Part shown: piece by piece, positions 1,637 to 8,644 of the stretch
How the letters are laid out: every line of letters begins with the position of its first letter
Position numbering within the stretch: the stretch's first letter is position 1
Origin: Promethearchaeota archaeon
GTDB lineage: Archaea > Asgardarchaeota > Thorarchaeia > Thorarchaeales > Thorarchaeaceae
Reading direction: 5' to 3'
Length of the DNA: 10,876 bases
Assembly (NCBI GenBank): GCA_014728035.1
Contig: WJMJ01000164.1
Span: 1 to 10,876, forward strand
The notes under the pieces: model-generated
What the model saw: the letters and a program-made list of their open reading frames with translations, nothing else
Databases searched by the model: none
Told to the model about the DNA's origin: nothing
Program-made: the position numbers and the translations under genes

Positions 1637-2836
1637 ATGACAGATGCTTCAAAGGTATATTTTGGTTCGATAGTTCATGGCAACAAGGGAGCCTTTGCGT
1701 CCATTGCCGTAAAGCTCGACAAGATTCTAGAGAACCTCGACCTCTCGACAATTGAGAAGAAAGACAAGGTAGCCATCAAGATGCACCTTGGATTCCGAGA
1801 CGGATATCAGACAGTTCCAGTGTTCTTTATCCGAAGAGTAGTTCATGCGATAAAAGAGCTCGGTGCATTCCCCTTCATTACAGATAATCCAACAGCAGTC
1901 TACAATGCAGCTGCACGGGGTTACACTGCTGAGACCTGTGGTTGCCCCCTCATCCCTATCGCTGGAGTAAAAGACGGCTACACGGAGAAAGTGGAATTTG
2001 ATTTTCATAATGTTGATACTCTGGAACTAGGTGGTGTACTAAGAGATGCGGATGCGATGATTGACCTATCTCATGCAAAAGGACACAATTCTTGTGGGTA
2101 CGGTGGTGCAATCAAAAACATCGCTCTAGGTGGTTATCATGGTCCGAGTCGTTGGAAGAAAATTCATGGCGTCGAGGCTAGTATACCCTACTGGGACGCT
2201 GACAAGTGCACTCCTGAACATGCAAAGAAATTGGTTGAAGCATGTCCAGATGGTGTCATCAAATACGACGAAGAAGAACACAAACTGACCGTTGGCTTTG
2301 GAATGTGTAATCAATGTCTTGAATGTATGGAAGTAGACAAAGATGTTGGATGTCTTGAACTCAAGCCAGAGAACTATGCACTCTTTCAGGAATTAATGGC
2401 TAGAGGTTCAGAGGCAATCCTCAAGACCTTTGATCAAGACAAGGTGTTCTATCTCAACTTCCTCCTCGATATCACAGCTCTCTGTGATTGCTGGGGAATC
2501 GGACAACCCCATATTGTGAACGATATTGGAATATTGGGAAGCAAAGATATCGTTGCAATCGAGTACGCTACTCTCGACCTCATCAAGAAAGAGGGTCTCA
2601 TCGAGAGGATGATTCCACCCTTCTTCAGAAAGGTGAATCTTGATCCTGAAGCAGACTTGCATCCGTTCCAGCGGATTCACGGTCCTTGGAAAGACCCCTA
2701 TCTAGCTCCGAAATATGCTGAAGAGCTTGGTCTTGGTTCATCAAAGTACGAACTTGTTGAGGTACTCTCACAAGAAGAGACCATGAAGATGAAGCCACCA
2801 ACAGGAGTCCGTGAGACAGAACCTTCATTCTATTGA
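1637..2836 (+). CDS. DUF362 domain Fe-S protein with ferredoxin-like insert (COG2768-like)
   Basis: Motifs KVAIKMHLG, LSHAKGH, GYGGAIKNIALG, CNQCLEC, ACP, LCDCW and DIGILGSKDIVAIE are typical of the family. 399 aa. Confidence 0.88.
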   Translation: MTDASKVYFGSIVHGNKGAFASIAVKLDKILENLDLSTIEKKDKVAIKMHLGFRDGYQTVPVFFIRRVVHAIKELGAFPFITDNPTAVYNAAARGYTAETCGCPLIPIAGVKDGYTEKVEFDFHNVDTLELGGVLRDADAMIDLSHAKGHNSCGYGGAIKNIALGGYHGPSRWKKIHGVEASIPYWDADKCTPEHAKKLVEACPDGVIKYDEEEHKLTVGFGMCNQCLECMEVDKDVGCLELKPENYALFQELMARGSEAILKTFDQDKVFYLNFLLDITALCDCWGIGQPHIVNDIGILGSKDIVAIEYATLDLIKKEGLIERMIPPFFRKVNLDPEADLHPFQRIHGPWKDPYLAPKYAEELGLGSSKYELVEVLSQEETMKMKPPTGVRETEPSFY

Positions 2837-2923: not shown

Positions 2924-3352
2924 ATGGAGAAAAAAGAGATAGTAAACAGAATCCAGACATTCTTCCAAGATAGAGTGGACGTCATTCTGGTCTATCTCTT
3001 CGGGTCTCACGTCACTGGATATACACATTCTGAGAGTGATATTGACATAGCTGTGATGGTCAAACCAATCAGTACTACTGATGCAGTAGAGCTCATAAAA
3101 GAACTAACAATCAAATTATCAGAGGTATTAGATGAGTGTCCGGTTGATGTTTTGATACTCAATCACACAGATATCCAAATACGGTTCAACATCATAAAAA
3201 CGGGTGAATTGCTTATCAATCGCGATGAGAGAACACGGATTTTCTTTGAGCAGATGACCATTAACGAATATCTTGATACACTTCCTCTGTGGGAATCATA
3301 CGATAGAGTTATGCTTGAAAGAATCAAGGAGGGAAGCTTCGGTGGTAGATAA
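2924..3352 (+). CDS. mntA: Minimal nucleotidyltransferase antitoxin (MntA-type adenylyltransferase)
   Basis: YLFGSHVTGYTHSESDIDIAV fits the GSx10DxD motif, with a downstream VDV acidic motif. RBS GAGGT at 2913-2917. Directly upstream of a HEPN gene. Confidence 0.92.
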   Translation: MEKKEIVNRIQTFFQDRVDVILVYLFGSHVTGYTHSESDIDIAVMVKPISTTDAVELIKELTIKLSEVLDECPVDVLILNHTDIQIRFNIIKTGELLINRDERTRIFFEQMTINEYLDTLPLWESYDRVMLERIKEGSFGGR

Positions 3353-3761
3353 ACAGACCATAATGAAACGGATATCAATGATAGAACGATGTCTACTGGT
3401 TTTAGAAAAAACAAAAGAAAAAGAATTGAAAGTATACATTAATGATTTTCGTGAACAATTGGCATCAGAACGAGCACTCCAAATCGCGATTGAAGCTTGT
3501 ATTGATATTGGCACCCACATCATATCCGCAAGGAAATTTCGCCGTCCAACAGATTATGCAGATGTTTTCATGATACTGCACGAAGAAAATGTCCTCTCAA
3601 GCGAGATTACCGAAAAACTTACAAAAATGGCCAGATTTCGTAATAGACTGGTTCACGCCTATTTGAGTCTTGATCAGGAGGTAGTATTCTCTATCATCAA
3701 TGAAAATCTAGATGATTTCAGAATGTTCCTTTCTGAGATAGCACTTCTATTCGCGACCTAG
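3342..3761 (+). CDS. hepT: HEPN (DUF86) ribonuclease toxin, HepT-type
   Basis: ERALQIAIEACIDIGTHII and FRNRLVHAY (Rx4H-x-Y motif). Start reassigned from 3273 to GTG 3342, which has RBS AAGGAGG at 3326-3332 and overlaps mntA by 11 nt. Confidence 0.92.
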   Translation: MVDKQTIMKRISMIERCLLVLEKTKEKELKVYINDFREQLASERALQIAIEACIDIGTHIISARKFRRPTDYADVFMILHEENVLSSEITEKLTKMARFRNRLVHAYLSLDQEVVFSIINENLDDFRMFLSEIALLFAT

Positions 3762-5889: not shown

Positions 5890-5908
5890 TTAGAGTCGGT
5901 GTAATATC

Positions 5909-6076
5909 TTGATAGAAGAATATCCTCCCAAATGTCCTAGATGCAATTCACGGGAAATCATAATTAAAACAAAGCACGAATACACCGGAGGAGGATACGC
6001 AGACAGATGGGATGAGTTCTATTGCGAAGATTGCGATTACGAATGGAAATCTGAAACCACATCAGATTATGCATAG
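5909..6076 (+). CDS. Zinc-ribbon microprotein A (55 aa, CxxC-x26-CxxC); not in ORF track
   Basis: Manual translation from TTG 5909 gives MIEEYPPKCPRCNSREIIIKTKHEYTGGGYADRWDEFYCEDCDYEWKSETTSDYA*. GGTG lies at 5898-5901. Paralogous to the next ORF. Confidence 0.82.
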   Translation: MIEEYPPKCPRCNSREIIIKTKHEYTGGGYADRWDEFYCEDCDYEWKSETTSDYA

Positions 6077-6088
6077 GAGATTCACAAA

Positions 6089-6262
6089 ATGCCAAATGAA
6101 AATACTCTCTTCTGTCCCAAATGTGCTTCAAGAGACATCTACATTGAATACCATCGAGAAAAGACGGAGGGGGAATACGATGAGAGATGGGATGAGTATT
6201 TCTGCAATTCATGTGAATACGGATGGAATTCACGAATAGATTCAGAAGTAAATCAGGTGTAA
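6089..6262 (+). CDS. Zinc-ribbon microprotein B (57 aa, CxxC-x26-CxxC); not in ORF track
   Basis: MPNENTLFCPKCASRDIYIEYHREKTEGEYDERWDEYFCNSCEYGWNSRIDSEVNQV*. RBS AGGAGA (6075-6080) overlaps the stop of A. 20 of 40 core residues are identical to A without gaps. Confidence 0.85.
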   Translation: MPNENTLFCPKCASRDIYIEYHREKTEGEYDERWDEYFCNSCEYGWNSRIDSEVNQV

Positions 6263-6307
6263 TAACAATCGGAAAATAACTACAGCCGAGCTGCTCCACA
6301 ATTGATA

Positions 6308-6320
6308 TCTTCTTTTTTCT
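6308..6320 (+). terminator. Oligo-T tract, candidate archaeal terminator
   Basis: CTTCTTTTTTTCT lies about 45 nt after the stop of microprotein B. Confidence 0.35.
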
Positions 6321-6487
6321 CAAATTTCGTATTGCTATCTAAGTAAATCCAAGAACTGAAAGATACAAGTATCAGATGACAATGAATCTTCAAGTATATC
6401 AGAATTGACCAAAATCATTATCTCTTTTCGAATGACTGTTGATTACAATACTTAGGTATTTTGTAAATTAGAATCAGGCGAATATCT

Positions 6488-8644
6488 GTGACACTCAATG
6501 AAACCCCATCAGAAAGAGACCAGCGGTTGAAGGAACTAAGAAAAGAAGAACCTGATGTTGTCATAAAAGCCATCCAAGAATCAGTAGAACCTTGGTGGGA
6601 GATTGCTTTCATTCATCCAGAGAAAAAACTGATGGCGGTTAAAGAAGTCAAAGACGCGATGATGAGCAGAGCGGACTATATCGCAGATGCTTTGAAGGAG
6701 AATAAAGAACCCTGGACTATCCTTTGGGGAATAGGGCAAGTTGAGGAATTCTTCAGATATGAACCAATTGTAGAAGGGATAGTTTACGCTCTGAAACATA
6801 ATGAAAACGCCTGGCAAACGTATGAAGAGATCAAAGAGTACAGATGGTTGATGAAGGATGAACGCATTCAGGATGCGCTAGTACTTGCTTTACGTAACCA
6901 CAATGGACCCTGGTTTACGTTGGATGTCATTTTGGATTACTATGATCTTGAGACTGAACAACGAACAATTGACGCAATCATCCATCAAATAGAACACTCT
7001 GACCATTACTACCTACTTATTCAATCAATTCTAGATTCTGAGTTCTTATTCAATCATCCAAGCATAAGAAAAGCTATCGAACAAAGAATACCAGATATTG
7101 CACATGGCATTCGAAAAAGTGAGAAGAATTGGGATATATTGAGAAGCATAGAAGACATCGACTACATAATTGAAAACGATTTGGTTATTGATGCTATTGT
7201 ATATGCAATCGAAAAAACCAATGAAGCACTCAGATTGATTTGGCGAGTTTGTGAAATACCCTCTCTTATCCAATTACTAAAAATACAACGAGTAATCGCA
7301 AAACAGATTCGAGAGTCTAAAGACTTCATCTCTATTCTATACTACTTGCAAGGAAACAGAAGACTTGTTGAAAGTGATGTAATAAGAGAGGCAATTTTGA
7401 ACAAGATATCAGATATTTCAAACCAAATCAGAACTGAGGACTATCCCATACAGACAGCTCAATCGATAACAGGGTTCTATTACCTATTGGAATATCCAGA
7501 GATACAAGAAGCTCTCAGGAGTAGAGCTTCTGATTTACTCCGTCAATCCTTTGATTATGATCTTGACATATTCGAAAAAGGTCAAGCACTTTTCTTCCTT
7601 CGTACTCACAACGAATTTCACCAATACCTTGCGGATTACTTGCGAGGATGTACCTATGGGAATAGATTAGAAAAAATAGCAAAGTCGTTTTCTGAAGTGT
7701 TGCAAGATAAGCTAGTCATACAATCCATCATTGATTTATTAGGAAATACTGAATATCCACATTACATAATCGGCGCATTAGAAGATACAGCCCTTCGTCA
7801 TAATCAAGAAGTTCTGAGAGCTATCGAGACCCGAATTCAGGATATTGTAACCGGGTTACAAACAGAAGAGATTCCATGGTACGAGATTGAGGAGATTGCT
7901 GTTGGAGATATTCTAATTGAGCATCAAACGATTCGAGAAGCAATTCTGAATGTTATACTGAAATCAGACAACGGTTGGATTTGCCTTCCATCTCTTATGT
8001 CAAAACCTGAATTGATTGAGAATGAGCAATTGCAAGATTCAATATTGGAACATATAGAAGAAATTGCAGAGTATATTCGAAGAGATAAAAAAGACCTACC
8101 ACTATTCTTGGACAGATTCTATGAAGTTCCCTTCCTGAGAGAAAATACAACAATTCAAGATGCGTATTTGTATAGAATTGACGAGATCATTGAAGACATC
8201 GAAACTAGGAGGGAGTTTTGGTATGATATTGGGTCAATTTCTGACAATCCAATTATAGTAACTCAGAAACGTGTTCAGGAAGCAATTCTAAAACGAGAGA
8301 AGGATTTGATTCATCACCTGAGATTTCGAGAGGATGCATGGAACATCATCGGGAATATTTGCGGGGTTGAATATCTGCTGGATTCCGAACAGATTCGGGA
8401 GGCAATATCTCACGTAATAGAAAGAACAAATAATCCGTGGTTCTTCGAGTATTATGGAGAGCTCCAACAATTCATTGATGAACAACGAATCAAAGAGGGG
8501 TTCCTAACTCGAGTAGAGGATTTTGCATATTGGATAAAGCATGGACCAAATTCCTGTGAAGTAGAAGCATTCGTAAAGATGATTCCATATTTATACAACA
8601 ATGAAATGATCAAGTCAGCAATAGAAAATATCTGTGAAAGTTAA
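6488..8644 (+). CDS. Alpha-solenoid repeat protein (about 19 repeats of 33 or about 40 aa), function unknown
   Basis: 718-aa ORF, acidic and Ile/Leu-rich. It has a recurring [PA]W-x2-[IL]-x2-I-x5-[LF]-x5-I-x2-A[IL] unit. No catalytic motif, signal peptide or TM segment was seen. Confidence 0.8.
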   Translation: MTLNETPSERDQRLKELRKEEPDVVIKAIQESVEPWWEIAFIHPEKKLMAVKEVKDAMMSRADYIADALKENKEPWTILWGIGQVEEFFRYEPIVEGIVYALKHNENAWQTYEEIKEYRWLMKDERIQDALVLALRNHNGPWFTLDVILDYYDLETEQRTIDAIIHQIEHSDHYYLLIQSILDSEFLFNHPSIRKAIEQRIPDIAHGIRKSEKNWDILRSIEDIDYIIENDLVIDAIVYAIEKTNEALRLIWRVCEIPSLIQLLKIQRVIAKQIRESKDFISILYYLQGNRRLVESDVIREAILNKISDISNQIRTEDYPIQTAQSITGFYYLLEYPEIQEALRSRASDLLRQSFDYDLDIFEKGQALFFLRTHNEFHQYLADYLRGCTYGNRLEKIAKSFSEVLQDKLVIQSIIDLLGNTEYPHYIIGALEDTALRHNQEVLRAIETRIQDIVTGLQTEEIPWYEIEEIAVGDILIEHQTIREAILNVILKSDNGWICLPSLMSKPELIENEQLQDSILEHIEEIAEYIRRDKKDLPLFLDRFYEVPFLRENTTIQDAYLYRIDEIIEDIETRREFWYDIGSISDNPIIVTQKRVQEAILKREKDLIHHLRFREDAWNIIGNICGVEYLLDSEQIREAISHVIERTNNPWFFEYYGELQQFIDEQRIKEGFLTRVEDFAYWIKHGPNSCEVEAFVKMIPYLYNNEMIKSAIENICES

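Follow-up and report, generated by a model that had tools for sequence, protein, structure and literature searches.

Among the known prokaryotes, none are more closely related to eukaryotes than the Asgard archaea. In archaea a large part of the microproteome is taken up by small zinc-finger proteins, and most of this part is unexplained. The CPxCG class groups small archaeal proteins of less than 100 aa which carry a CPxCG-like pattern and, at a distance of 7-40 residues, a second Cys/His pair (Tarasov et al. 2008, PMC2253796). The zinc ribbon VdcD binds the UbiD-like protein VdcC tightly and activates it allosterically (PMC8379154).

In this work we analyzed two small ORFs in a window of 10,876 bp, which is the whole of contig C145 of the Thorarchaeal assembly G000 (4.33 Mb in 173 contigs). 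The original prediction had seen here a tandem pair of paralogous, unannotated zinc-ribbon microproteins, and had recognised no named family with their RWDE motif.

Results

The ORF pair and its coding evidence

ORF1 (5909..6076, 55 aa) and ORF2 (6089..6262, 57 aa) lie in one frame on the forward strand with their starts separated by 180 nt, which confirms the coordinates given for the tandem pair. ORF1, a canonical member of a zinc-ribbon family marked by the motif EYTGGGYAD, starts with TTG; as there is a stop 14 codons ahead of its first Cys, no other in-frame start is available to it. ORF2, a diverged tandem paralogue, starts with ATG. Each ORF does have the ribosome-binding-like sequence ascribed to it, read from the sequence of the forward strand as a Shine-Dalgarno-like site: GGTG (5898..5901) lies 7 nt upstream of the TTG of ORF1, and AGGAG (6075..6079) overlaps the stop codon of ORF1 and lies 9 nt upstream of the ATG of ORF2. 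The spacer between the ORFs measures 12 nt, which suggests a bicistronic unit, and the pair is a probable two-gene operon. Archaeal transcription termination occurs at T-runs, and an oligo-T tract (ttcttttttctc, 6310..6321, forward strand), judged from its letters only, is a candidate terminator; it begins 48 nt past the ORF2 stop, contains a T6 run at 6313-6318 between ORF2 and a 718-aa gene at 6488, and would part the ribbon pair from that gene. A scan for sigma-70 promoters and intrinsic terminators, which is ill-suited to archaea, gave nothing above shuffled sequences, and the whole window contains no Rfam match and no tRNA.

When the two proteins were compared by BLASTP they shared 21 of 45 aligned residues without gaps (E 4e-15), so that the proposed paralogy stands; the count given originally was 20 identities in 40 ungapped positions. 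The DNA of the two copies aligns in register, and the 13-nt block AGATGGGATGAGT is indeed identical in both (6005-6017 and 6185-6197). Each protein has four Cys arranged as two CxxC knuckles placed 26 residues apart, CPRCN and CEDC in ORF1 and CPKCA and CNSC in ORF2; all of the Cys, both Trp and the RWDE residues are common to the copies, as had been described. The pair is unannotated as far as the ORF track behind the original prediction goes, but both proteins are already present in the public protein collection, ORF1 being listed from NCBI/nr.

The dN/dS comparison of ORF1 with ORF2 gave a pS of 0.64, a pN of 0.34 and an omega of ~0.3, based on ~25 synonymous sites which are near saturation. 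Pairs of orthologues had pS values of 0.75-1.0 (saturated) with pN values of 0.21-0.35, the full span of pN at saturated pS being 0.21-0.44, and the ribbon frame was the only one free of stop codons in 15 out of 15 loci. Synonymous sites are thus saturated while the amino acids are kept, which makes both ORFs conserved protein-coding sequences and bears out the predicted selection on protein. Two further ORFs were considered and ruled out, an antisense ORF of 119 aa (5964-6323) and a +2-frame ORF of 75 aa, no alternative frame being open across the 15 loci.

Shine-Dalgarno-like sites recur upstream of orthologues as GAGGTG or AAGGTGATC, and the AGAGT(C)GGTG context of ORF1 also precedes the TTG of a Thorarchaeal orthologue (L008). 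Four of the 15 family genes have no possible start other than TTG, and one family gene has ATA at the position where close relatives have ATG; the loci with TTG-only or ATA starts are the window (5909), L008 (4974), L038, L015 and L013. This unusually high number of TTG-only starts may reflect deliberately weak initiation.

Family signature and distribution

A profile built from the two ORFs was scored on all 1.84 billion representative proteins of all lengths (E <= 1e-3) and gave 13 matches, mostly proteins of 50-90 aa; no fused form of the ribbon was found in this exhaustive search. Homologues therefore exist and the pair is not unique. A profile of 14 sequences extended the family to 44 clusters among 5.8 billion proteins, the named sources of which are MAGs of Thor-, Heimdall-, Hod- (Hodarchaeales) and Kariarchaeal (Kariarchaeaceae) lineages and one "Spirochaetales" MAG, the rest being metagenomic. 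A six-frame scan of 400 Asgard genomes found strong matches in nine, a frequency of ~2%, with two copies in G000 only; genome G001 (same genus as G000, 97% complete) had no ribbon match in the same scan. Two scans of viral contigs found no family member, and a single-protein search of 40 relatives gave nothing convincing. ORF1 belongs to a rare family that is almost wholly Asgard archaeal.

An alignment of 38 sequences (A3) gave the signature (E/W)(Y/W)PxxCPxCGS-x8-(S/G)EYTGGG(Y/F)(A/G)DxWxE(F/Y)xCxxC-x3-WRS-x3-(S/T)xY-x-end, or in short CPxCGS-x8-SEYTGGGYADxWxE-x2-CxxC-x3-WRS-x3-SxY. ORF1 matches the whole of this signature, and its identity to proteins from Thorarchaea and metagenomes amounts to 65-69%; the family HMM recognizes ORF1 at E 1e-29 and ORF2 at E 2e-25. 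Both ORFs contain the two CxxC knuckles 26 residues apart, the invariant E24, G28 and W34, and the near-invariant W46. The hairpin motif EYTGGG(Y/F)(A/G)D and the C-terminal motif (S/T)-x-(Y/F)-x are both present in ORF1 (EYTGGGYAD ... SDYA) and both missing from ORF2 (EKTEGEYDE ... SEVNQV), so that ORF1 counts as a full family member and ORF2 as a divergent paralogue. The RWDE residues singled out by the original prediction occur in both copies but are not a hallmark of the family, since among 38 relatives only the W is fixed and the E nearly always kept; the hallmark is EYTGGGYAD. Taking these data together, both ORFs are very probably real genes of a conserved family.

It should be noted that G000 contains a further four-Cys ribbon ORF of 52 aa directly after a nadC-like gene (L003 1498-1656; G000:C25:139201-139359), which matches the family weakly (E 0.01) and has no EYTGGGYAD motif.

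Divergence of ORF2

The maximum-likelihood tree places ORF2 in a clade with 98/97 support together with ORF1, protein P0025, the orthologue of genome G345 and a Heimdallarchaeal protein. The branch of ORF2 has a length of 3.54 as compared to 0.17 for ORF1 (~20x), and long-branch effects make its exact position in the tree unsure. Measured against the G345 orthologue, ORF2 has a dN of 0.53 and ORF1 one of 0.25. ORF2 forms a singleton cluster among the 5.8 billion proteins, the word-based homologue search having returned ORF2 alone. It retains the four Cys, E24, G28, W34, E36, Y44 and W46; its hairpin reads KTEGEYDE in place of EYTGGGYAD, and the conserved SxY at the C-terminus is lost. ORF2 is a fast-evolving tandem duplicate specific to this genome, and its long branch could represent relaxed constraint leading toward decay instead of a new function.

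Gene neighbourhood, presence and decay

To survey the neighbours of the ribbon, 16 loci were compared with each other by BLAST, a set that does not include the "Spirochaetales" and Kariarchaeal members. Across lineages no conserved neighbour was found in the 16 loci, and synteny was lineage-local only, with DUF362 and GDSL genes in Thorarchaeota and NifU and a response regulator in one sediment lineage. The ribbon genes of other Asgard lineages have unrelated housekeeping genes as neighbours, such as Trm1, nucleoside phosphorylase and metallophosphoesterase, or QueC, or acetyl-CoA synthetase. In G345 the order is DUF362, 55 bp, the ribbon, a GDSL hydrolase gene 12 nt from the ribbon stop, and a large surface protein; G344 follows this order apart from an inserted beta-helix gene, and the ribbon again lies 12 nt upstream of the GDSL gene. 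In genome G346, which belongs to the genus of G345, a gap of 21 bp separates DUF362 from GDSL and the ribbon is absent. The ribbon is thus polymorphic for presence and absence within one genus (L039, G345:C77, 6367-6603, as compared to L060, G346:C288, 1479-1501).

Two decayed copies were identified as pseudogenes, one in G261 (L044, G261:C128, 3016-3168) and one in G087 (L026, G087:C109, about 1500-1650). The G261 copy has a TGA replacing the Trp of EWPP together with the changes G27C and W34G, and the G087 copy has three in-frame stops. Reading the TGA of G261 as selenocysteine was ruled out, as the TGA takes the place of a Trp, that of EWPP, and this copy also carries mutations at invariant residues. 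From the gain, loss and decay among close relatives, together with the lack of any conserved partner gene, we infer that the ribbon gene is dispensable.

Contig and genome context

From DUF362 onward the genes of the window are, in order, DUF362, an MNT/HepT pair, a TPR protein, a 320-aa gene, ORF1 and ORF2, the 718-aa repeat protein and an Lcl_C protein, the last two occupying the place which the GDSL gene has in the Thorarchaeal relatives. The MNT-type nucleotidyltransferase and the HepT ribonuclease (2924-3761), whose ORFs overlap, make up a toxin-antitoxin pair, which relative to the related loci is an insertion between DUF362 and the ribbons. The 718-aa repeat (solenoid) protein (6488-8644) has zero Pfam matches; its sole relative among G001, G344 and G345 is found in G001, is 24% identical and is unlinked to any ribbon. 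The idea of a module made of the ribbon pair and the solenoid was ruled out, since no relative has the solenoid gene linked to a ribbon gene.

Positions 1-141 of the window match the end of contig C49 (G000:C49:7939-8079) with 100% identity over the first 47 codons of a 5'-open ORF, which indicates that contigs C145 and C49 adjoin in the genome. Two DUF362 paralogues are present in G000 (window 1637-2836 and G000:C151:99561-100781). The copy in the window is 77-82% identical to those of genomes of genus g8 (82% to that of G345) and only 59% identical to that of the same-genus genome, while for the C151 copy the identity to the same-genus copy is 84%. The DUF362 gene of the window is thus nearer to genus g8 than to its own genus. 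Considering these identities and an estimated contamination of assembly G000 of 8.5%, a second Thorarchaeote within the bin may be the source of C145, which does adjoin C49.

Named families and predicted structure

None of the curated thresholds of Pfam and NCBIfam was reached by the window proteins or by ten individually scored members. The claim that no named family applies is therefore right with respect to thresholds, but the family borders on VdcD by sequence, and the Pfam accession PF26358.1 is among the precomputed annotations of 11 of the 44 relatives, although not of the window proteins; no mention of PF26358 was found in the literature. The most consistent match is the NCBIfam VdcD model (NF041205), which recognizes 32 of the 38 members at E <= 0.01 with a best E of 1.2e-7. 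With respect to the cut-off of 30 bits ORF1 scores 18.9 and ORF2 16.3 bits, which is below membership, and the best of the ten other members individually scored, P0006, reaches 28.1 bits. These matches span no more than the first 35, 36 or 37 of the 70 model positions, and the Pro-rich C-terminal tail is absent. When run against the PDB the family profile found ShdD chains at E 0.012-0.022 with DxW...CxxCxYxWRS aligned; against the 5.8 billion proteins it found no VdcD at database-wide significance. Judged by these comparisons VdcD/ShdD is the nearest named relative, and part of the similarity could come from constraints common to zinc ribbons. There is no UbiD match in the window, and the sole UbiD gene of G000 is on contig C25.

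Other models gave weaker results. The Lar models match 15 of the 38 members at E <= 0.01, with recurrent weak scores of ~20 bits which are all below cut-off; for PF14354 (cut-off 28.6 bits) ORF1 scores 19.9 bits and ORF2 has no listed match. The TFS_arch model matches four of the 38 members, and Pfam Zn_ribbon_TFIIS (PF01096, cut-off 21 bits) scores 13.4 and 12.3 bits for the window proteins, covering one knuckle only, and no more than 18.4 bits for relatives. In the Protein Atlas nothing but unnamed clusters and zinc ribbons of DUF type came up, with chance-level scores. Both ORFs fall within the definition of the CPxCG class, which is a motif class only.

AlphaFold2 with family alignments predicted ORF1 as a three-stranded zinc ribbon with two CxxC knuckles (pLDDT 75.7, moderate) and ORF2 with the same fold (pLDDT 75.8, moderate; >85 in the core), residues 51-57 of the ORF2 tail being disordered. 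This agrees with the zinc-ribbon fold put forward originally, a prediction matched by ribbons of TFIIS, Rpb9, NrdR, ZPR1 and VdcD. Each protein is predicted to bind one zinc via its two knuckles, and the ribbon would carry a long beta-hairpin with the GGG of the family motif at the tip, which is placed at G28; in ORF2 this predicted tip carries E27 and E29 (E-G-E). The best-identity structural match to the predicted ribbon was ShVdcD (7ae4_a; rmsd 1.6 A over 37 residues, 35% identity). Besides ShVdcD, Foldseek and VIA-align found only generic zinc ribbons (Rpa12, Rpb9, TFIIS, NrdR and ZPR1; Z <= 5.5). The family is strongly acidic, with a pI of 4.1-4.6, a net charge of -5 to -10 (about -6 to -7 for the window proteins) and 16% aromatic residues.

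The C-ribbons of Rpa12, Rpb9 and TFIIS are among the best fold matches (Foldseek TM 0.59-0.62, E 0.08-0.2; VIA Z 4.0-4.4), and E27 and E29 at the predicted ORF2 tip, together with a knuckle spacing close to that of TFIIS ribbons, would fit an action on RNA polymerase. A Z of 4-5 is, however, usual for any zinc ribbon. The tip is GGG and not acidic in 36 of the 38 members, the acidic tip being confined to this one genome, and the conserved D/E of RWDE belongs to strand 2, where it precedes the second knuckle by 3-4 residues, and not to the tip. Docking of TFS/TFIIS needs an N-terminal domain or linker, and the window proteins have neither.

Discussion

The role which we consider most likely for the two ribbons, tentatively and at less than an even chance, is that of an acidic accessory subunit which binds protein. 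The window proteins would dock on a larger protein as small accessory or regulatory subunits, with the conserved hairpin and the aromatic C-terminal tail as the contact surface. The strong acidity, the aromatic content and the likeness to VdcD favour such protein docking over nucleic-acid binding. ORF2 is altered in exactly the hairpin and the C-terminal tail, which would be consistent with a changed or competing specificity, so that ORF2 may be a variant with a different partner or a competitor of ORF1. What speaks against docking is that the neighbours differ in every lineage and that no partner gene emerges from them. The explanation as a whole, made up of a two-gene operon, a rare family, a local duplicate and the docking mechanism, is in our judgement probable by a narrow balance.

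Direct nucleic-acid binding by the ribbons is less likely than docking, and this bears on the alternative that the proteins are small CPxCG zinc-finger transcription regulators like Brz, which would act directly or via a DNA-binding partner on nearby genes, i.e., on GDSL in the relatives and on the solenoid here. The fit to the CPxCG motif class (PMC2253796) and the position of the ribbon just before the GDSL hydrolase gene in G345 and G344 are consistent with such a regulator. The negative net charge argues against direct binding, and neither the surveyed loci nor the exhaustive search at all lengths produced a DNA-binding neighbour or fusion. The supposed targets do not follow the ribbon either, as G346 retains DUF362-GDSL in its absence and the distant solenoid of G001 likewise stands without one. 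We consider this alternative unlikely.

That ORF2 or both ORFs are non-functional, either as chance ORFs or as a decaying duplicate, would be in keeping with the singleton status and very long branch of ORF2, with its loss of the two most conserved surface motifs, and with the decay of the family in G261 and G087. Chance is excluded for ORF1 by orthologues with saturated synonymous sites, and ORF2 keeps the invariant structural residues, an intact frame, an ATG, a Shine-Dalgarno-like site, a pN well below its pS with respect to ORF1, and a predicted fold that is the same as that of ORF1 with a confident core. This alternative we regard as quite improbable.

A more daring version of protein docking would make the family an Asgard offshoot of a VdcD-type allosteric microprotein re-used on a partner other than UbiD (e.g., the GDSL hydrolase), with ORF2 as specificity variant or competitive antagonist of ORF1. 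We give this little credence; if true, ORF1 and ORF2 would be a natural pair of microprotein and anti-microprotein. Lower still we place the idea that the proteins are true VdcD-type small subunits activating a (de)carboxylase of the UbiD family whose gene lies in another part of the genome. The VdcD model and ShVdcD are the most consistent model match and the best-identity structural match, respectively, and G000 does have one UbiD gene. The scores of both ORFs are nevertheless below the cut-off, only the first half of the model is covered (positions 1-36 of 70) with the Pro-rich tail missing, and the hairpin has an insertion of five residues. UbiD/UbiX genes lie near none of the roughly 15 family loci, and the ribbon, in ~2% of Asgard genomes, is rare while the UbiD family is widespread in archaea (nine out of 14 control genomes). 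Finally, in spite of the fold resemblance set out above, we hold it least probable of all that these are stand-alone TFS/TFIIS-type C-ribbons which would enter the RNA polymerase secondary channel with Gly-rich and acidic hairpins as activator- and inhibitor-like variants, given the sub-threshold match over a single knuckle, the four TFS_arch matches as compared to 32 for VdcD, and the GGG tip.

The value of this locus is that it defines a compact family of ~55 aa with a strongly conserved hairpin, a patchy range, a history of gain, loss and decay, and one pair which has duplicated and diverged. ORF1 and ORF2 are a clean test object in which the same scaffold carries different surfaces, and if the partner were found it would tell whether VdcD-like allosteric microproteins act outside UbiD enzymes.

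Among known systems, the Lar restriction-alleviation family (PF14354, TIGR03655) also consists of small zinc ribbons, but the window family lacks any phage or prophage setting, and none of its members turned up in the scans of viral contigs. The C-ribbons of TFIIS/TFS, Rpb9 and Rpa12 (PF01096) have the same topology as the one predicted here, a similar knuckle spacing, and are the best structural matches (TM ~0.6); unlike in TFIIS/TFS there is no significant sequence match and no N-terminal domain or linker, and the catalytic acidic tip motif of TFIIS is absent, the tip being GGG in ORF1 and E-G-E, which is not the TFIIS motif, in ORF2. With the CPxCG class, which includes Brz of Halobacterium salinarum (PMC2253796), the window proteins share a size below 100 aa and a CPxC(G) knuckle followed by a second CxxC 26 residues off. 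The members of that class are abundant archaeal microproteins, mostly uncharacterised, which form a motif class and not a homologous family, and Brz differs from the window proteins in that its second pattern is Cys/His and its regulatory role has been shown. Unlike VdcD, the window family has no Pro-rich C-terminal tail and no UbiD/UbiX (VdcC/VdcB) linkage, has a hairpin that is five residues longer and contains EYTGGGYAD, and is Asgard archaeal and sporadic, with scored members below the curated cut-off. What it has in common with VdcD/ShdD, which is the small subunit of vanillate/4-hydroxybenzoate decarboxylase (NF041205; PDB 7AE4/7AE5/7AE7; PMC8379154), is a single four-Cys ribbon that is comparable in size and has three antiparallel strands (here predicted), the pattern D-x-W-x4-C-x2-C-x-Y-x-W-R-S in the second half, and a stand-alone form, which in VdcD/ShdD is that of a microprotein working through a larger protein. 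By its sequence ORF1 is best described as a small archaeal zinc-ribbon microprotein with a distant likeness to VdcD, and the family is one more uncharacterised zinc-ribbon family of small archaeal microproteins, not a new kind of system.
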